A DNA stretch of 63,345 nucleotides, filler included. It is 8 parts of 8 records of this genome, joined end to end, with 100 filler letters (N's around TTAATTAATTAA, not from the genome) between each part and the next. Parts side by side here need not be neighbours in the genome. Positions count along the whole stretch, not along the records: positions 54,825 to 63,345 come from SRR31147125_22359; 7 more parts are not named here. One strand, 5' to 3'. The position numbers and the translations under genes are program-made. The notes below the pieces were generated by a model. That model did not search any database. It was given only the letters and a program-made list of their open reading frames with translations, and was not told where the DNA came from. Position 1 is the first letter of the stretch. Every line of letters begins with the position of its first letter. Positions 54,529 through 63,345 of the stretch are shown one piece after another.

Positions 54529-54724
54529 ATGAAAATGACTTCGAATGAAATAGCAAAATTAGCAAATGTATCAAGGGCAACGGTTTATAGAGTTATAAAC
54601 AATAAGCCAGGAGTTAAAGAAGATACTAAAAGACTGGTACAGCAAATTATCGAAAAACATAATTACGAGCCCAATATTGTAGGTAAGGTATTAGCAAATC
54701 AAAACAGACCGTATAAAATTGGGG
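54529..54724 (+). CDS. LacI-family regulator, 3'-truncated
   Basis: EIAKLANVSRATVYRVIN...NYEPN. Confidence 0.9.
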
Positions 54725-54824
54725 NNNNNNNNNNNNNNNNNNNNNNNNNNNNNNNNNNNNNNNNNNNNTTAATTAATTAANNNNNNNNNNNNNNNNNNNN
54801 NNNNNNNNNNNNNNNNNNNNNNNN
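54725..54824. other. Artificial contig linker
   Basis: N-run, TTAATTAATTAA, N-run. Confidence 0.99.
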
Positions 54825-55740
54825 TGTTTTCTGTAGGAATCGTGGCCTCTAACCTAGTTAAAAGAAAACTAATATCTTCATCAAAGATTTCTTTTTCAGG
54901 TAGAGTTAAAGTAGATGCAATTCCATTACTCGTCACATCTTTTGCTCTTATCAAAAATTTCCAATTCTTTTGTTTAATGTGCTCAAAATTGTTATATCCT
55001 TCATAACCTCTATCAGCAATAACAATAGTTTTTTCAGAAAAAATAGAATTTTTAACTATTTCTCTTAAGGCTTGTCCTTCGCTTGCTTCTCTTCCATTTT
55101 GAATAGAAGCATCAGTGTAAATTCTACTGCATAGATCATAAGCTGCATTTAAGTGTAAAGAATTATGTCCTTTTCCTCTTTTGTTTGGAAAATATGTTTT
55201 ATTATCATTAGGATTATGAGAAATCGTTATTTTTGAACCATCTATTGCAAGTAAACGATATCCTTTAAATTTATTTGAATTCAAAGATTTTTTATTAAAA
55301 TTATTAAATATGAACTGAAAGGCGTCATGTGATATTTTATCTCTTTGCTGTATGAAAGCAGATGCAGTAGGTAATTTTAAATCAAAAGAAAAATATTCGA
55401 GAAGTTTATTATTTAAACTTTTTCCACCAGTAGAAAGAATTATTTTGATAATATCCTTAAAAGTCAGTTTTCTATTTCTAGTAAAATCCTTATCAGGATT
55501 CTTAAGATAAAGGTAAGAACAGTTTTGCAGTTCATTAATAGTCATTTCTAAATTATTTTTAACACTTTCAATGTATTTATTCATTTGTATCCTCCTTAAA
55601 AGTAATTACTTTATAAGGGCTACGCCACAAAAAATTGAAAAAATGTCAAGTAAAATCAAGCAAAAAACTAAAAAAAACAGAGCATGATTTTTATCATACT
55701 CTGTTTTGAAAAATATTTAATTCTTAACTTAATGACATTG
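54825..55740 (-). mobile_element. IS4-family insertion sequence, left part (transposase 55584 to contig edge)
   Basis: FTRNRKLTF, SAFIQQR, LAIDGS and IADRGY motifs; terminal IR CAATGTCATTAAGTTAAG (55740-55723) next to CTAG. Confidence 0.88.
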
Positions 55741-55992: not shown

Positions 55993-56412
55993 TTAATTAA
56001 GTCCTAATGCTTCTTTTTTTCTATCTATTTGGTGATCTACTACAAAATTTATATCTGTTTTTTCATAGTCTAAATTTCCAATAAGAAGTTTATTACCTGA
56101 AGCTATTATAAGCGATTTTGTTCTATCCTCTTCATTCGTTTCGTACCAATCAAAAAGTCTAAAAAGGTGAGTAATATATACAAACTTTTCGCCGTTTTCA
56201 TCTATTATTTGCCCCTTTGCCCTAACTTCATATAGCGTCTTATCATCAAATCGCATGATTAAATTTACTTTATCATCTTGAATTTTAAAGAAATAATAGG
56301 TTCCTTCATCAGCTGCTTTCCAAACCCCGTCAAATTCCCCTGCAAAAATAAAAGATGACATGATAACACATAAAACTAATATTATTTTTTTCATCTCACA
56401 CCTCTTGAACAT
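55993..56412 (-). CDS. Exported hypothetical protein
   Basis: Signal peptide MKKIILVLCVIMSSFIFA (likely true start), FDGVWK motif. Confidence 0.65.
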   Translation of the reverse strand: MFKRCEMKKIILVLCVIMSSFIFAGEFDGVWKAADEGTYYFFKIQDDKVNLIMRFDDKTLYEVRAKGQIIDENGEKFVYITHLFRLFDWYETNEEDRTKSLIIASGNKLLIGNLDYEKTDINFVVDHQIDRKKEALGLN

Positions 56413-56454: not shown

Positions 56455-56832
56455 TCAATTTAGAATGTTAGGTATAACTGGGTTATAAACTTCTTCAGTC
56501 TCCTTGAAATCCCATGTCATCTCGATTACTCTTTTGAGAATTTCATATTCTTTTAAACCTAAGTATGAGAATGCAGTAAGGAAATCCACTTTATAACTGT
56601 TATTTGAAAAAAAGCAATAAGCTATTTTTAACATCATTTGAACTTCTGAATCCAAAAGATCTATTCCCGATACTGAACTTATATCTTTCATATAGTTCTC
56701 TTCAAAATCATAGAACTTTTCTTTTTTATCAAATAATTCTGGGATGTTCGAAATAATATATAATGCTGCTTTCCTTTCTTTGTCTTCAGAATGAACGTTA
56801 GCTCTTTCTAAAAGCTCTGTATACTTTGACAT
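56455..56832 (-). CDS. Hypothetical protein resembling DUF6075/DUF2538-type proteins of mobile elements
   Basis: D.ERKAALYI...YDF...MLKIAY.FF pattern; family assignment from recall. Confidence 0.5.
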   Translation of the reverse strand: MSKYTELLERANVHSEDKERKAALYIISNIPELFDKKEKFYDFEENYMKDISSVSGIDLLDSEVQMMLKIAYCFFSNNSYKVDFLTAFSYLGLKEYEILKRVIEMTWDFKETEEVYNPVIPNILN

Positions 56833-57477: not shown

Positions 57478-58749
57478 ATGATTATTGTATTTGAAGGGCT
57501 ACATGGAAGTGGAAAAACAAGCCAAATTAAATTGCTAAAGAAATGGTTTGAAAAAGAAAAGAAAAAAGTATTCTATTCAAATTGGAATTCATTTCCACTA
57601 CTACAAGAACTAAATCAAAAGTTAAAGTTCTCTGAAGAATTGTCGCCATATTCTTCTTTGTTAATACATACTCTCGATTTAAATTTAAGATATGAGAAAA
57701 TTTTAAACGAATATGATCCTAGTAAGGATATAATAATTTTTGATAGATATATATATACAAGCTTAATTAGAGAAGGATTAAGAAATATTTCAAAAGAGAA
57801 AATAAAAATATTTAATGAAACATTTCCAGAACCTGATCTGACATTTTTTATTGATATTTCTCCAGAAAAAAGTAGAAAAAGAATGAGGTTAAATCTAGAA
57901 AAAAGATCTCCATATATTATTGGGAAAGATTTAAATTACTCTAATGAACTAGAAGAAAACTTCAATATATATTTAAATCGACAAAGAAAAGAATACCTTA
58001 ATTTATTTAGAGAGAGAAATGAAAATACATATATAATAAATGGAGAAAATGATATAGATTGTAATCATAAATATATTAAATCGATAGTTCAAAATGAATT
58101 AAAAAAAATTATTCTAAACGTTGAAAAAGAAATTAAAATAAAATTAACTAAAGAACAATTTAGCTTAATTAAAAAAAATATAAGAATTAAATGCAATAAC
58201 TCAAGAAAAATAAACCAAATTAACTATTATATTGATTCAAATGACTTTGAATTAAAGAGGAACAAAATTACTATAAAACTTAGAGAATATATTGGAAAAA
58301 AAGGATTAGAACTAACCCTAAAATACAATTTAAAAGAAATAGAAAAGTTTAGTTTAAAGCAAAAAAATGAAGTAATAAATTGGATAAATTTTTCAATAAA
58401 TGACATAATCGGTAATTCAAAAGTTAAAAAGCAGTTATTTCAGCAAATAAAATTAAATCTAAAGGAGTTTGCTAACTATGATGTGAAAAATGAGATTCGC
58501 ATCATGGGAAAGCTAATGACAGAAAGAGAGTTATATGCTATTCCGGGATTAGAAAAAAACGTCATTTTGGATAAAAGTTTTTATTTAAATGAGATAGATT
58601 ATGAATTAGAACTAGAAAGTGATAATTATAAATCAGATTTTGAAAAACTAAGAAAATACCTTGAGAAATGTGGAGATATTTCTATGAGTTTCAATAAATC
58701 TAAATCAAGTCGGTTTTTCGATAAATACAAAAATATTGATTGTTATTAA
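57478..58749 (+). CDS. Thymidylate-kinase-like / CYTH two-domain fusion
   Basis: N-terminal FEGLHGSGKTSQ P-loop, FDRY and PEPDLTFFID; C-terminal EKEIK (ExExK), QINYYID, ELTLK, DYELELE. Confidence 0.85.
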   Translation: MIIVFEGLHGSGKTSQIKLLKKWFEKEKKKVFYSNWNSFPLLQELNQKLKFSEELSPYSSLLIHTLDLNLRYEKILNEYDPSKDIIIFDRYIYTSLIREGLRNISKEKIKIFNETFPEPDLTFFIDISPEKSRKRMRLNLEKRSPYIIGKDLNYSNELEENFNIYLNRQRKEYLNLFRERNENTYIINGENDIDCNHKYIKSIVQNELKKIILNVEKEIKIKLTKEQFSLIKKNIRIKCNNSRKINQINYYIDSNDFELKRNKITIKLREYIGKKGLELTLKYNLKEIEKFSLKQKNEVINWINFSINDIIGNSKVKKQLFQQIKLNLKEFANYDVKNEIRIMGKLMTERELYAIPGLEKNVILDKSFYLNEIDYELELESDNYKSDFEKLRKYLEKCGDISMSFNKSKSSRFFDKYKNIDCY

Positions 58750-58824
58750 CTACTAACTTAAGTCGTAAAATTTTCATTACATATATTTTAATGAAATTAA
58801 TTAAGTATTGAAAGGGGGAGAAAA

Positions 58825-58908
58825 ATGAATAATTATAATAAACCAGTTTTAGTTAAAGAAACTAACGAAACAAAAGTTGCTAAAGTAATTTGCAGCGAGG
58901 AGTTATAA
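58825..58908 (+). CDS. Putative RiPP precursor peptide, 27 aa (not in ORF track)
   Basis: AAAGGGGGAG RBS at 58811-58820; MNNYNKPVLVKETNETKVAKVICSEEL contains YxxPxL; PqqD gene two genes downstream. Confidence 0.8.
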   Translation: MNNYNKPVLVKETNETKVAKVICSEEL

Positions 58909-58914
58909 GAAAAA

Positions 58915-58938
58915 AGAGCTAGCCTTACGGCTAGCTCT
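58915..58938 (+). terminator. Hairpin after the precursor gene (leaky terminator or mRNA stabiliser)
   Basis: AGAGCTAGCC-TTAC-GGCTAGCTCT perfect 10-bp stem; no U-tract on the + strand. Confidence 0.65.
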
Positions 58939-58974
58939 AAATGGAATTTAAAATATTAGAATTGTAGGAGAAAA

Positions 58975-59727
58975 ATGAATAAAAAATTAGAAAAAAGATT
59001 AAATGAGATTGATATTAATATAAAAGATATTTTAAAAAAAATTGAACTAAACTCTCAAGAAAGTGTTGTCATGTATAGTTCACATATTGAGGGATTGGGA
59101 ACAGATGAATCAGATTTAGATATTTATGTAATCTGCAAAGAAATACCAATCATTAAAAATGCAAGGCGAACACCATATTCGGTAGTTCAAATTGCTTTTA
59201 TAAATAATGTTAAATTAGACATTGAATATCTAACTTACGAAACAGTAAAGAAATTATTAAATAAATTGCAAAGTGGAAAATCTTTGACAAATGAAGAAGT
59301 TAAAATTTTAAACAGATTGAAAGTTGGAGAATATATTCTAAAAAATGAACACCAAATGAAATTAATGAATGAAATTGAAAAAAATAAATTAAATGAACAC
59401 TTAAAGAATTATTTTATTGTTAATTCAAATTCGGAAGAAGCAGATGCTGTAACTATGTATAAAGCTAATAATTTAAATGCAGCAATTTCTTGTGCCAGAA
59501 GAGCTCTAGATTATTCAGTTGGGGCGTTTAATTGTAATAGTGGATATACAAACCCAAATGTCAAATGGATTCCCAAAATTTTTATTGAGTATTCTTCAGA
59601 TTCAGATTTAAGAGAGGAATATTTAAATCTTCAAATATTTTCAAAAGTGACTAAGGAAAACATTCGAGAGCAAATTGAGGCTATATTAAGTTTAAGACAA
59701 GAAATAATATCGAGTTTATTATTTTGA
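58975..59727 (+). CDS. Pol-beta-superfamily nucleotidyltransferase with helical (HEPN-like) C-terminal domain
   Basis: YSSHIEGLGTDESDLDIYV fits the [G/S]S-x9-13-DhD motif; third Asp in KLDIEY; helical C-terminus. Confidence 0.8.
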   Translation: MNKKLEKRLNEIDINIKDILKKIELNSQESVVMYSSHIEGLGTDESDLDIYVICKEIPIIKNARRTPYSVVQIAFINNVKLDIEYLTYETVKKLLNKLQSGKSLTNEEVKILNRLKVGEYILKNEHQMKLMNEIEKNKLNEHLKNYFIVNSNSEEADAVTMYKANNLNAAISCARRALDYSVGAFNCNSGYTNPNVKWIPKIFIEYSSDSDLREEYLNLQIFSKVTKENIREQIEAILSLRQEIISSLLF

Positions 59728-59743
59728 TTAGGGAGGAGAAGAA

Positions 59744-60001
59744 ATGAAAAAATACAAAAAAGCATTCGGAACAAAATTATGTAAGCATGAAGGAAACTTT
59801 CACATTATAATAGGAAATGAAATATTCAATCTAAATGAAGTTGGTGCAAGAATATTTGATTTATGTAATGGAAAAAATGGAACCAACGATATAAGTAAAA
59901 AAATAGCAAAAAAATATGACGAAAAGGATTCTATGATTAGCATCGATGTTTTAGAGTATATAGAGCAGCTTAAAACAGAGAGATTAATCGAGGAGGTTTA
60001 A
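59744..60001 (+). CDS. Stand-alone PqqD-family RiPP recognition element (RRE)
   Basis: 85 aa; LNEVGARIFDLCNG...I...IAKKY...DVLEYIEQL....LI. Confidence 0.88.
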   Translation: MKKYKKAFGTKLCKHEGNFHIIIGNEIFNLNEVGARIFDLCNGKNGTNDISKKIAKKYDEKDSMISIDVLEYIEQLKTERLIEEV

Positions 60002-60007
60002 CTCATA

Positions 60008-60757
60008 ATGAGTCAACCTTACATCTTTAAAAAACAAATAATTGGAGTTATTTTTTGTTTATTAGTAGCTATCTTTTATAAATATATACTAAAAAATGAA
60101 ATATTGTTTGAAAGTTCCATTTACTATTTATTTTTATTATTAAGCATCACATTTATTCCAAGTATAGGTTTATTAAGGCTCTCTAAAAAGCTTAAACTTA
60201 TTGTAATATCGGTTTTTTTCTATATTTCACTTTTTTTTCCATTAATGTTTGGAAAAATTGATATTACAATTTATTGCTCTTTTGAAAAACTAGCTCTTGC
60301 GGTTTTAGTTGGAGGAATTTTAGTTGTTCTTAAGTATCTTTATTTGAAATTTAATGGAATAGATAATCAGAATGTTATATCTTTTACAAAAATTAGTAAA
60401 CTAAGGGCAATTCATAATACTTATCTATACTTAATTCCAGTAATAGGGGAAGAAATATTTTTCAGAGGATATTTAACTAGGGTATTATATCCAAAATATG
60501 GAGAAATATCATTGTTGATAATTTCGTTTCTTTTTGTATATATTCACTATTTAAATAGATGGTCTAATATTATTTTTACTAAAGGAAGTTATTTTTTTCA
60601 TTTTTTAAACTCTTTGATATTTTGTATTATGTATATTTATACTGATAACCTTATACCAGTAATATTATGTCATTTAATTTTTAACATTGATAGAATATTG
60701 GAAACAGTTAAAAGAGTTAGAAAAGAAGATATAAGTTATTCCTTTAATGATTATTAA
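60008..60757 (+). CDS. CPBP (CAAX/Abi) intramembrane protease
   Basis: EEIFFRG, F..IH and H..FN motifs; multiple TMs. Confidence 0.88.
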   Translation: MSQPYIFKKQIIGVIFCLLVAIFYKYILKNEILFESSIYYLFLLLSITFIPSIGLLRLSKKLKLIVISVFFYISLFFPLMFGKIDITIYCSFEKLALAVLVGGILVVLKYLYLKFNGIDNQNVISFTKISKLRAIHNTYLYLIPVIGEEIFFRGYLTRVLYPKYGEISLLIISFLFVYIHYLNRWSNIIFTKGSYFFHFLNSLIFCIMYIYTDNLIPVILCHLIFNIDRILETVKRVRKEDISYSFNDY

Positions 60758-60783
60758 TCGAACTTTTTAATCGAGGAGAAAAC

Positions 60784-61590
60784 ATGAGGACAATTTATGC
60801 AGTAATGGAACGAAATATAATTACAAAGTTAAGAGCATACCCATATTCATTTTTTCTGGGTGGAATTCTTACAAAGTTTTATTTAGTTTTGGCATCGTAT
60901 TTAATTTTTAATCATTTATATGATGGAAAAGTATCAGAAAAATTTATAAAATACGCTAATATAGATGATTATATGACATATGTAATCATTGGAGCTTCTT
61001 TCTATATGTTTATAAGGAGAACTATATTAAGTGTTAGTAGAAGCTTCATTACAGAAATGAGAGAAGGTACTTTAGAAAGTTTATTAATTACTCCAATGAA
61101 GTACACTAGTTATTTAATAGGAAATATGCTAGAACAATCTCTTTTAACTTTTTTGGAAGTAATTCTTGCTTTTATAATTTGCATACCATTCGGATTTAAA
61201 ATAAGCAGTGTCAATGGAGAAGGGATAATTTTAACAATAATTTTATCATTATACTCTTTTTTCGGACTTTCAATATTTATTTGTGCACTAATGATTCAGT
61301 TTAAAGACACCTATATAATTCAAAATACGTTTTTTTATTTATTAGCTATTTTAGCAGGAATATACTTTCCAATAGACTATTTACCTAAAAAAATTCAATT
61401 ATTATCAAATCTTTTACCAGTAACTTACTCAATGTCATTGTTTAGAGGAATGCTAATGGAAAAACTAGTTATAAATAATATCTTAGGAATAATTTTTAAA
61501 CTATTACTTTCATCAAGTATATATTTAATTATTGGTTGGGTTATACTAAAAGTCTACTTAAAAAAAGCAGTTTCAAATCAGTTTATATAG
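60784..61590 (+). CDS. ABC-2 type exporter permease
   Basis: EMREGTLESLLITP, GIYFPIDYLP, about six TMs. Confidence 0.9.
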   Translation: MRTIYAVMERNIITKLRAYPYSFFLGGILTKFYLVLASYLIFNHLYDGKVSEKFIKYANIDDYMTYVIIGASFYMFIRRTILSVSRSFITEMREGTLESLLITPMKYTSYLIGNMLEQSLLTFLEVILAFIICIPFGFKISSVNGEGIILTIILSLYSFFGLSIFICALMIQFKDTYIIQNTFFYLLAILAGIYFPIDYLPKKIQLLSNLLPVTYSMSLFRGMLMEKLVINNILGIIFKLLLSSSIYLIIGWVILKVYLKKAVSNQFI

Positions 61591-61605
61591 AATTAGGAGG
61601 CATTA

Positions 61606-62590
61606 ATGATCGTTGTAAAAGATTTAAAAAAATTATAAAAAAATTATAAAAAAAAGTTTTTTTAGAAAAAAATGTTACAGAAGTCGAAGCTCTAAAAGGA
61701 ATAAACCTTTCAATAGAACCTGGTAAAATAGTTGGTTTACTAGGAATTAATGGGGCTGGCAAAACAACCACAATAAAAATTTTATCTACTTTATTAACTA
61801 AGACGTCCGGTGAGATTTATATAGATGAAGAAAGAATTGATAAAGATGAAAAAAAAGTTAGAGAAAAAATCAACATGATTGCTGGTGGTGAAAGAATGTT
61901 GTATTGGAGGCTTACAGCAAGAGAAAATTTAAAATATTTTGGAAGACTTTACAACCTAAATGAAAGTAAATTAAATGAAACAATAGATAAATTACTAGAT
62001 TTTTTTGATTTACAAGACAGGGCTGATGAACCAATTGAAAATTATTCCAAAGGAATGAAGCAGAGAATTCAAATTGCCAGAGGATTAATTAATGATCCTA
62101 AATATATATTTTTAGATGAGCCCACTTTAGGTCTAGATGTCTTGATAGCAAAAGAGGTTAGAAACCTTATAAAAAAATTAGCACAAGAACAAAATAAAGG
62201 AATTCTTCTTACTTCACATTATTTGAACGAAATAGAAGAATTATGTGATTATGTTTATATTATCGATAACGGAAGAAACATTCTGGAAGGCTCTCCAAAA
62301 GAAATTATTAAAAGAATAACAAGTAATAAAAAAGAGTATATTTTAGAAATTAAAGATAGTGAAAACTATGTTACAAAACTAGAAAAAGAAATATATCAAG
62401 ATATTAAAATAGAAGAAAAAGATAATGAAACTTTACTTTTATCTGTTAAATTAAATTCTACTGAAAAGAAAAAGCTTTTTCTGATATTGAAGACAAAGCA
62501 GAAATTATTAGTTATAGTACTAAAAATACTGATTTAGAGGAAGCTATCATAATGCTTTCGGAGGATATAAAAAATGATGTATATATTTAG
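61606..62590 (+). CDS. ABC exporter ATPase, disrupted by frameshifts in homopolymer tracts
   Basis: AGGAGG RBS and ATG at 61606; Walker A GINGAGKTT lies upstream of the tracked ORF in its frame; YSKGMKQR, LDEPT; a C-terminus with TDLEEAI continues in another frame. Confidence 0.8.
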
Positions 62591-63345
62591 AGTTATTTAT
62601 GCTGAATTTATAAAACAAATTAAAAATAAATATCATTCTGGTTTAATTATATTTTCAATGCTTCTTTGGCCAATTCTTAAAATGTATGTGACATATTTTG
62701 TCTATAAACCCTTTGAAGGGGTAAAGTTAAATGATCAAAACATAAGTTTAATTTCAGAAGAAAACATGTTAGCCTTTCTACTTTATGGATATCTTGCTTT
62801 AATGTTTTATAATAGTTTTATAAAATCTGCATGGATTTTTTCAAGAGAAAGAATTATGGGAACCATTGAAAGTATTTATTTAACCCCTGCTTCAAGAGAG
62901 GCCGTTTTATTTGGAAATGCATTATCATCGATGATAGAAAATGTTTGGCTTTATACTATTTTTTCATTAGTACTCGCAAAATTCTTTTCTAATAGTAATC
63001 AGGAAAATTTAATAATTGTTTTAGTTAGTATATTAACACTTTTAATTCCTGCACTTGTTTGGGGAATGTTTCTAAATTCAATTTTTATATTTTCTAGGGA
63101 TATCGGAGTTATGTTGTCATTTTTAGATGACCCCATGGAAATATTTTCTGGAGTTAAAATACCGTTTCTATCACTTCCGGCTTGGGCAAGAACTATAGGA
63201 TCCTTATTTCCGCTTACTTGGTCATTAATGATTATAAGAAAAGTTTTCATAGATGGGGCATCGCTTAAAGAATTAAAATTAGAAATTTTAGTTACACTAA
63301 TAATTTCTATCGTTATTTTAATATGTACTTTCTTTTTAATTAAAA
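62574..63345 (+). CDS. Second ABC-2 exporter permease, running off the window end (not in ORF track)
   Basis: GGAGG RBS; MMYIFRVIYAEF...RERIMGTIESIYLTP...FSGVKIPF.SLP. Confidence 0.88.
   Translation, partial: MMYIFRVIYAEFIKQIKNKYHSGLIIFSMLLWPILKMYVTYFVYKPFEGVKLNDQNISLISEENMLAFLLYGYLALMFYNSFIKSAWIFSRERIMGTIESIYLTPASREAVLFGNALSSMIENVWLYTIFSLVLAKFFSNSNQENLIIVLVSILTLLIPALVWGMFLNSIFIFSRDIGVMLSFLDDPMEIFSGVKIPFLSLPAWARTIGSLFPLTWSLMIIRKVFIDGASLKELKLEILVTLIISIVILICTFFLIK

Follow-up and report, generated by a model that had tools for sequence, protein, structure and literature searches.

A rare, predicted peptide maturation and export cassette of Bacillota with a RiPP recognition element and a Pol-beta-fold nucleotidyltransferase

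What could mature a 27-residue peptide whose gene lies beside a stand-alone recognition element for peptides made on the ribosome and modified after translation (RiPPs), when the enzymes around it appear to handle nucleotides? This question is raised by the end of a 63,345-nucleotide stretch of DNA (the window: eight parts of one genome joined end to end with filler letters), of which we analysed positions 57478-63345 and also scanned the upstream surroundings. Maturation guided by a RiPP recognition element (RRE) is a known process and, to our knowledge, every described RRE-guided class rests on a handful of maturase folds. A preliminary description of this DNA had listed a kinase/CYTH fusion, a short open reading frame (ORF), a nucleotidyltransferase (NTase), a PqqD-type RRE, a CPBP protease and three ATP-binding cassette (ABC) transporter genes, and had seen no classical RiPP maturase. 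All eight genes lie where it had placed them, as co-oriented reading frames on the + strand within the analysed region (Table 1), and no radical S-adenosylmethionine (SAM), YcaO, Lan, ThiF or lasso enzyme was found among the seven cluster proteins and nine upstream ORFs scanned. To judge from its genes, what the window carries is one representative of an RRE-linked cassette of Bacillota, from anaerobic Firmicutes, that is rare yet conserved and would serve to mature and export a peptide.

The evidence for a conserved unit comes from homologous loci, which were gathered by pattern scans with an 11-row NTase alignment (nine loci in species genomes and six in metagenomes) and by whole-genome searches, which added more. 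Eleven further RRE-bearing loci were found in Bacillota, making 12 with the window and spanning two divergent NTase lineages: nine close type I loci (the window, L001, L002, L003, L004, L006, L008, L011 and L012), one divergent locus (L023) and two type II loci (L024 and L025). Because the same gene set recurs in 11 other loci, the cassette is not a chance grouping, and the idea that it forms a conserved unit is borne out by the loci. NTase, PqqD, CPBP, ABC-2 and peptide genes stand together in L001, L002, L003, L006, L008 and L011, and the divergent L023, L024 and L025 hold the gene set too. L004 and L012 follow the same order as far as the extent of their contigs allows, L012 stopping after permease 1 and L004 having an unscanned 412-residue ORF at the place of the ABC-2 genes. 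Near every one of the 12 PqqD-fold RRE genes there is a short motif-bearing precursor gene, and the CPBP gene directly follows PqqD in all of them; ABC-2 genes come next wherever the contig continues, L004 apart. The NTase and PqqD frames are adjacent or overlapping in most loci.

The same arrangement was recovered by plasmid BLAST in distant mode on pDSM14864-244 of Clostridium estertheticum (L001), in the order short ORF, 254-residue protein, PqqD, CPBP, permease, ATPase, permease, CYTH and kinase. The 254-residue hypothetical protein is 35% identical to the window NTase (E 3e-48), and the CYTH and kinase proteins correspond to those halves of the fused window protein, with E 3e-22 and 5e-45, respectively. 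L024 (8745-14044) and L025 (5511-10208) are second, divergent copies in the genomes of L008 and L003; they comprise NTase, PqqD, CPBP, ATPase and two permeases, with a peptide type of their own (MKKYTAPKAKK..LPAAL..). Type I and type II NTase lineages thus have identical partners inside the same genomes. The family is rare: among the scored genomes, which are all that these counts cover, it occurs in two of 399 of the class, one being the query genome, and in three of 388 of the family, of which two were known beforehand.

Is the short ORF a genuine gene? It is preceded by a GGGGGAG ribosome-binding site and followed by a hairpin with a perfect 10-bp stem, after which there is no T run on the + strand; an Rfam search of the window gave zero matches. 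A strong ribosome-binding site stands ahead of each type I peptide gene, and a hairpin follows the gene in nine of nine type I loci (z from -2.4 to -11; the coordinates used for L011 and L012 were 1-2 nt off). Peptide ORFs of 22-27 residues with a [YF]xxP motif are present in all 12 RRE loci (Table 2), and a scan for the peptide motif in the sequence then gathered returned eight true copies and one other match. With homologues in 11 loci, ribosome-binding sites and hairpins, the ORF stands as a peptide gene with a YxxPxL motif. The neighbourhood search that the preliminary description had suggested, for conserved short YxxPxL-type ORFs with RRE and CPBP next to the NTase, returned a [YF]xxP ORF and CPBP in 12 of 12 RRE loci.

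Table 2. Peptides encoded in the 12 RRE-bearing loci
Locus	Peptide
Window	MNNYNKPVLVKETNETKVAKVICSEEL
L004	MKRYEKPILVKEQNTKIVAKVLCRTNA
L011	MKKYESPTIVKVQDAKIVAKMLARMNA
L001	MKKFEKPVIIKITDETIIAHVIASNEI
L002	MKTFEKPEIIQITDEAVIARVIAGHEV
L008	MEKFEKPVIIKVVDEKIVASLSAGMEI
L003	MKKYEKPMIEQVERPEVVALDLDV
L006	MKKYEKPSIKEVLQEEVTAVNVRV
L012	MKKYEIPKIVIVKNDALIAKIFV
L024	MKKYTAPKAKKISLPAALGADIALR
L025	MKNYVAPKAKKVQLPAALSLEA
L023 (partial)	...VYKAPKLIVVKLPAAMDNA

The type I peptides align without gaps, and [YF]4, P7, [IL]9 and A19 are invariant in all nine (Y4, P7, L9 and A19 in the window), so that an invariant Ala stands 15 residues after the Tyr or Phe. In lasso peptide leaders, according to passages of PMC10368454, YxxPxL occupies positions -17 to -12 and a Thr is conserved at the penultimate position, with Ile, Val or Ala there only rarely. 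When Y4 is set at lasso position -17, A19 falls exactly at -2; Y4, P7, L9 and A19 then take up -17, -14, -12 and -2 of the lasso register, with Ala and not Thr at -2. On this register the putative leader would comprise residues 1-20 and the core 3-7 residues, the putative type I cores being VICSEEL, VLCRTNA, MLARMNA, VIASNEI, VIAGHEV, LSAGMEI, DLDV, NVRV and IFV. Cleavage after the Ala itself would give cores of 4-8 residues. The type II peptides have Y..P and a conserved LPAA[LM], followed by 3-7 residues.

The partners that would read and cut such a leader are both present. The PqqD protein of the window gave PDB profile matches to PqqD and TbiB1, and scored 34.3 bits against the NCBIfam model of lasso RREs (NF033536, lasso_PqqD_Bac), whose cut-off is 80. 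The CPBP protein carries the EExxxR, FxxxH and HxxxN motifs; all 11 aligned sequences have E149, F176, H180, H222 and N226, and at least 90% have E148 and R153, a pattern from which a catalytically intact protease is predicted. CPBP proteins are known as bacteriocin immunity factors. RRE-Finder, in the part of PMC7470986 that deals with them, reports around 8,000 lasso-like discrete RREs, about half of them without lasso enzymes, and it is among these that the window cassette probably belongs.

The third conserved partner, the NTase, reaches zero curated families in Pfam or NCBIfam; its only Pfam match at E <= 0.01 was to an MTPAP-like palm (MTPAP-like_central), with 18 bits against a 27-bit cut-off. 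An AlphaFold2 model built from 62 homologues has a mean pLDDT of 96.2 and a pTM of 0.90, and Foldseek aligned it with the NTase-like protein 3c18 of Exiguobacterium (E 7e-8) and with two-domain O-nucleotidyltransferases, the kanamycin NTase ANT(4') and the lincosamide NTase LinB (E 1e-5 to 1e-4, TM ~0.6). The protein is predicted to consist of an N-terminal NTase domain and a C-terminal helical one. All 62 sequences have G42, S46, D47, D49, D82, K197 and W198, and at least 90% keep E84 and D157. The gene encodes an NTase with the Pol-beta catalytic signature hG[GS]...DxD...D/E, whose fold and catalytic residues are intact in the model, and whose activity is accordingly a predicted one. ANT(4') and LinB share this signature (G-S...DxD...D/E) as well as the fold, and the look-alikes of the NTase in the protein atlas are NTP_transf_2 and KNTase_C clusters. 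Unlike ANT(4') and LinB, to which it is only 9-14% identical, the window NTase has no Pfam KNTase_C or NTP_transf_2 match and lies in a peptide/RRE setting, whereas those enzymes are lone resistance genes. A HMMER search of 1.84 billion representatives gave 240 relatives with E <= 1e-3, 84 of them with E <= 1e-10, and almost all about 250 residues long; a word-based protein search gave one. An antitoxin-type NTase of the MNT/HEPN kind was considered and rejected, with only E 0.44 in the PDB profile search.

Nucleotide handling extends to the first gene of the cluster. Its kinase half (57478-58107) matches Pfam Thymidylate_kin over residues 5-200 (E 1.3e-24), and residues 216-398 match CYTH, a triphosphate-tunnel domain (E 3.5e-11), in which an ExExK motif was spotted by eye in the translation. 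The preliminary description had called the kinase half a TMP kinase. The thymidylate-kinase fold stands, and the NCBIfam model of dTMP kinase (TIGR00041) scores 86.9 bits against a cut-off of 83.25. The best solved relative, however, is 2plr/5h70 of Sulfurisphaera tokodaii (E 3e-27), compared with E 5e-18 and ~5e-10 for annotated thymidylate kinases, so that the protein is closest to the PPK3 branch of polyphosphate kinases (Saci_2019, STK_15430) and not to true dTMP kinases. Excerpts of PMC12995831 describe STK_15430 (PDB 5h70) as a cPPK3 homologue, and the PPK3 family as preferring the synthesis of ATP from ADP and polyphosphate and as lacking the dTMP-binding residues. The dTMP kinase name may thus be wrong. 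Unlike PPK3-type kinases, the predicted kinase of the window is fused to CYTH and placed in a peptide cluster.

Kinase and CYTH are separate genes in L001, L003 and L004, and one or both are present in 10 of the 12 RRE loci, as expected for members of the cassette; the exceptions are L008 (within 10 kb on either side) and L012 (a 4.2-kb contig). No fused relative appeared among 8000 candidates of 232-741 residues, a search whose Lys-rich query makes its negative outcome weak evidence. The nucleotide theme claimed for the cluster is upheld by other loci, in which enzymes that convert nucleoside mono-, di- and triphosphates (NMP, NDP and NTP) keep turning up: L006 and L023 have mutually homologous pyruvate-kinase (PK) barrel proteins, L022 a PPDK-like protein, L011 two phosphoenolpyruvate-utiliser proteins, L024 a MazG gene, L003 a cytidylyltransferase-like protein, and L025 dCMP deaminase, Ham1, NUDIX and methyltransferase genes. 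From the pyruvate-kinase, NDK, MazG, Ham1, NUDIX and dCMP-deaminase genes of these other loci we infer that the NTase is provided with an NTP of its own, which may be a non-canonical one.

How might these parts work together? The genes of the cassette fall, as far as their distribution tells, into two constant halves, one made of peptide, RRE and CPBP, the other of the NTase with the ABC-2 exporter. In the explanation that we tentatively put forward, and to which we give slightly less than an even chance, the short core would receive a nucleotide-derived group from the NTase, in an RRE-guided, CPBP-processed and ABC-2-exported route. The RRE would bind the lasso-type leader, and the NTase would transfer the nucleotide-derived group to the core from an NTP that the kinase, CYTH and accessory enzymes would maintain or make for the purpose; the CPBP protease would then remove the leader at the membrane and the ABC-2 system would export a small peptide-nucleotide conjugate. 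The preliminary description had already proposed an exported nucleotidylated peptide. What has lasted of that proposal is the conserved unit, the peptide gene and the nucleotide theme; the part in which the NTase acts on the peptide is a prediction. A predicted complex of the NTase, the 27-residue peptide and PqqD scored 0.86, and 0.68 with the NTase replaced; we count this result neither way.

Several observations weigh against peptide nucleotidylation, and those on the acceptor come first. Beyond the RRE motif no position holds a conserved Ser, Thr, Tyr, Lys or Cys, the peptides of L003, L011 and L012 have zero hydroxyl residues after position 9, and the L012 core, IFV, is without a reactive side chain. 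Minimal NTases are able to AMPylate protein tyrosines, as MntA does on HepT, and GlnE is another example; the Pol-beta NTases known to us attack through a hydroxyl or a phosphate. The lack of a conserved hydroxyl residue in the cores argues against O-nucleotidylation of a set Ser, Thr or Tyr, and would leave a carboxylate acceptor, an amine exposed after cleavage, or an NTase that does not act directly on the peptide. The sole reactive group at a fixed place in all peptides is the free C-terminal carboxylate; the last residue of the L024 peptide is Arg, and that of the other 11 is Ala, Val, Ile or Leu.

One elaboration follows from this, and we regard it as quite unlikely in its full form: that the cassettes make Trojan-horse peptidyl nucleotides of a new class. 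Leader and RRE would present a 3-8-residue core, and the ANT-like NTase would join its C-terminal carboxylate to a dedicated, possibly modified (deoxy)nucleotide, which would be a new acceptor chemistry for this fold. The PPK3-like kinase and CYTH enzyme would raise the nucleotide to the triphosphate, helped in other loci by PK, NDK, MazG and Ham1, and the CPBP protease would strip the leader on export. After uptake and proteolysis, the released Ala-, Val-, Ile- or Leu-nucleotide would mimic an aminoacyl-adenylate.

The remaining counter-evidence concerns the partnership itself, and much of it would suit two modules lying side by side. There, NTase, kinase/CYTH and ABC-2 genes would handle a nucleotide- or nucleoside-type small molecule, and peptide, RRE and CPBP would be a separate add-on in which the peptide is only processed by CPBP, as a signal, a bacteriocin-like peptide or a regulator, and is never touched by the NTase. 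L005 and L022 have the NTase with ABC-2 genes (and CYTH in L022) and are without PqqD, CPBP and the short ORF; distant NTase homologues in L007 and L014 also lack PqqD, and the proteobacterial L007 pairs its homologue with Tmk-like and NDK-like genes. From these four loci, the NTase may act on a non-peptide acceptor. Across the loci, the occurrence of PqqD follows that of CPBP and the peptide and not that of the NTase; L008 has 540 bp between the NTase and PqqD genes, with PqqD and CPBP still adjacent. The nearest folds of the NTase are small-molecule enzymes, acting on aminoglycosides and lincosamides, and sugar- or aminocyclitol-type genes adjoin L001, L003 and L008. Against this separation, the peptide, RRE and CPBP genes lie between or directly beside the NTase and ABC genes in 12 loci of two lineages, the frequent contact or overlap of NTase and PqqD frames points the same way, and no second transporter or regulator that would serve a separate peptide system was seen in the loci. 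On this evidence we consider two independent modules somewhat unlikely, though a serious contender.

Could the maturase simply lie out of sight? A conventional radical-SAM RiPP, with its maturase beyond position 63345 and the NTase as only an accessory tailoring or immunity enzyme, would accord with a window that stops inside the last permease gene and with a peptide that is most similar to that of L004. Peptide-type radical SAM/SPASM genes, of the PapB, MftC, PqqE and StsB types, do lie inside L004, L011 and L024, another point against a route centred on the NTase, and in L004 one stands next to a B12-radical SAM gene. The preliminary description had held that a classical maturase in homologous clusters would speak against it, and to that extent one is present, in three of 12 loci; it is not conserved across them. 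A BLASTP comparison of 39 accessory proteins, all against all, gave a radical SAM link for L004/L011 only, at 24% identity, besides linking the two L001 paralogues, L022 and L001 weakly, a PK-like pair and a CYTH pair. No radical SAM gene of these loci reaches a curated NCBIfam cut-off, and among the ORFs scanned in the available sequence of L001, L002, L003, L006 and L008 we noted no radical SAM/SPASM gene of the peptide type. The cores are also without a conserved Cys or aromatic residue for the known cross-links. A conserved radical SAM partner was rejected, the genes of different loci, the weak L004/L011 pair apart, not being orthologous in BLASTP; present in a minority of loci and not as one conserved partner, radical SAM enzymes do not define the class, and we judge a hidden maturase of this kind improbable.

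An inducible resistance operon, with an ANT-like NTase and an ABC efflux pump under a translated leader peptide and attenuator hairpin, would account for a short ORF and hairpin directly upstream of an NTase with the fold of aminoglycoside and lincosamide resistance enzymes, but it is highly improbable. Conservation of the peptide extends to its amino-acid sequence and includes an RRE-type motif, and the RRE gene is always there; the hairpin, as we read it, leaves clear the putative ribosome-binding site of the NTase; the presence of kinase, CYTH and CPBP genes would go unexplained; and L004 has the peptide gene behind CPBP, L023 between NTase and PqqD.

Returning to the RRE-guided, NTase-dependent route, which known system does it resemble? 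The cassette would work most like a lasso-type RRE/leader system in which peptidase and cyclase have been replaced. Lasso clusters of Bacillota and others that include a tailoring kinase and a nucleotidyltransferase, such as those of paeninodin, pseudomycoidin (PsmN) and BsfN, share with the window a discrete PqqD-type RRE, the leader register and an ABC exporter. Unlike them, the window has neither a B2 transglutaminase-type peptidase nor an asparagine-synthetase-like cyclase among its cluster proteins, and has a CPBP protease, a kinase and a CYTH enzyme instead. The preliminary description was right not to see a lasso cyclase, and a B2 peptidase is not involved either: in addition to their absence from the cluster proteins, PF13471 (B2 peptidase) had no match in four of five host genomes of homologous loci, and the matches of the fifth lie on other contigs. 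Lasso membership was rejected on the absence of both enzymes and on a core too short for a 7-9-membered ring, which takes an Asp or Glu at position 7-9, and a tail. The window NTase gave no Pfam match at E <= 0.01 to NTP_transf_5, which we take to be the family of the lasso-cluster NTases PsmN and BsfN. Nonetheless, the NTase-annotated tailoring gene that some lasso clusters carry, as parts of PMC7533575 describe, is the nearest precedent for the window NTase.

As to the product, it may be of a type like that of microcin C, whose operon likewise unites an exporter and an enzyme that transfers a nucleotide with a ribosomal peptide of very small size; a Trojan-horse peptide-nucleotide product is conceivable for the window cassette too. 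Microcin C uses the ThiF/E1-like MccB and needs a C-terminal Asn, whereas the window has a Pol-beta-fold enzyme, a stand-alone RRE and a predicted cleavable lasso-type leader. Membership of the microcin C class was rejected, there being no ThiF-type match in the cluster proteins and a C-terminal Asn in none of the 12 peptides. A short peptide, a PqqD-type RRE and a peptidase are also common to the pathways of PQQ and mycofactocin, in both of which the useful product derives from a few C-terminal residues. These depend on a radical SAM enzyme (PqqE, MftC), and none is visible in the window or conserved across the loci.

No description of this gene set was found in the literature, in line with the preliminary description, which did not recognise it as a described class; supplementary tables could list such clusters among unclassified RRE hits. 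What is new would be an RRE-linked peptide system with a new set of partners, the chemistry of its peptide being a prediction. A group of orphan RREs gains a conserved partner set of Pol-beta NTase, CPBP, kinase/CYTH and ABC-2 proteins, with unusually short precursors. If the NTase acts on the peptide, the cassette would be a second, independent route to peptide-nucleotide conjugates besides microcin C, and the conjugate could carry a non-canonical nucleotide; if it does not, the loci still define a conserved nucleotide-modifying export module. An intact copy of the cassette is present in a cultured, non-pathogenic strain, on the plasmid of C. estertheticum DSM 14864 (L001), and Bacillus renqingensis (L002) has another.

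Table 1. Features of the analysed region, in coordinates of the window
Feature	Position	Strand	Evidence
Thymidylate-kinase-fold P-loop kinase + CYTH fusion	57478..58749	+	Pfam
Precursor peptide gene, 27 aa, MNNYNKPVLVKETNETKVAKVICSEEL	58825..58908	+	homologous ORFs in 11 other loci
10-bp G+C-rich hairpin between peptide and NTase genes	58915..58938	.	-18.5 kcal/mol, z = -4.5
Two-domain Pol-beta-fold NTase, ANT(4')/LinB-like, 250 aa	58975..59727	+	model, Foldseek, conservation
Stand-alone PqqD-family RiPP recognition element, 85 aa	59744..60001	+	Pfam PqqD E 5.8e-12
CPBP (Rce1-like) intramembrane glutamic protease	60008..60757	+	Pfam E 1.1e-15
ABC-2 permease 1	60784..61590	+	Pfam ABC2_membrane E 1.5e-19
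ABC ATPase, DrrA-like, interrupted	61606..62537	+	ABC_tran E 1.8e-11 on 61875-62537
ABC-2 permease 2, cut by window end	62574..63344	+	ABC2_membrane E 2.9e-9

The exporter of the window copy calls for two corrections. The permease, ATPase and permease of the preliminary description are all three present, but the reading frame of the ATPase gene is broken and the end of the window truncates the last permease, with 257 codons present where homologues have 270-281 residues. From the ATG of the ATPase gene, ten codons are followed by a TAA at 61636-61638, and the Walker A motif is in a frame other than that of this ATG. An 11-nt tandem repeat (AAAAAAATTAT, twice) lies at 61626-61647 in an A/T-rich stretch inside the gene, and the ORF at 61875-62537 lacks the N-terminal 70 profile positions. 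The interruption could be a real lesion or an assembly error. With the ATPase gene broken and the cluster cut at 63345, the window copy may be inactive or incomplete, another point against the proposed route.

Some neighbours of the homologous loci are of interest in their own right. MoaA-, viperin- or DesII-like radical SAM genes occur in L003, L022 and L023. The set of L008 (15333-20765) consists of a 250-residue radical SAM/SPASM, a GT4 and a DHQS-like gene together with a 524-residue ORF, and the divergent genes at 1-7555 of L001 are SDR, carboxylate-amine ligase, aminotransferase, aminoglycoside-phosphotransferase-family (APH) and histidine phosphatase genes along with the two radical SAM paralogues; both sets resemble sugar or aminocyclitol pathways. 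A 187-residue GGDEF-domain protein is encoded on the - strand of L023 (10559-11122), directly upstream of and overlapping the NTase gene. L007 (4862-12258, on a contig shared with L013), from a Rhodobacteraceae metagenome-assembled genome, encodes a distant NTase homologue of 353 residues among Tmk-like, NDK-like, class-III aminotransferase, formyltransferase, GGACT and major facilitator superfamily (MFS) genes; from this gene set, which is without PqqD, the pairing of NTase and kinase seems older and wider than the link to the peptide.

Directly upstream of the window cluster there is a 645-bp gap, followed by genes on the - strand: a DUF6075 gene (56455-56832), a hypothetical gene (55993-56412) and a DDE transposase gene (54769-55584), which adjoins an 83-residue LacI-type helix-turn-helix fragment (54529-54780). 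Near 53.5 kb the G+C content falls from ~0.35 to ~0.25. Given this fall and the upstream gene set, the cluster seems to belong to an A+T-rich island that was acquired.

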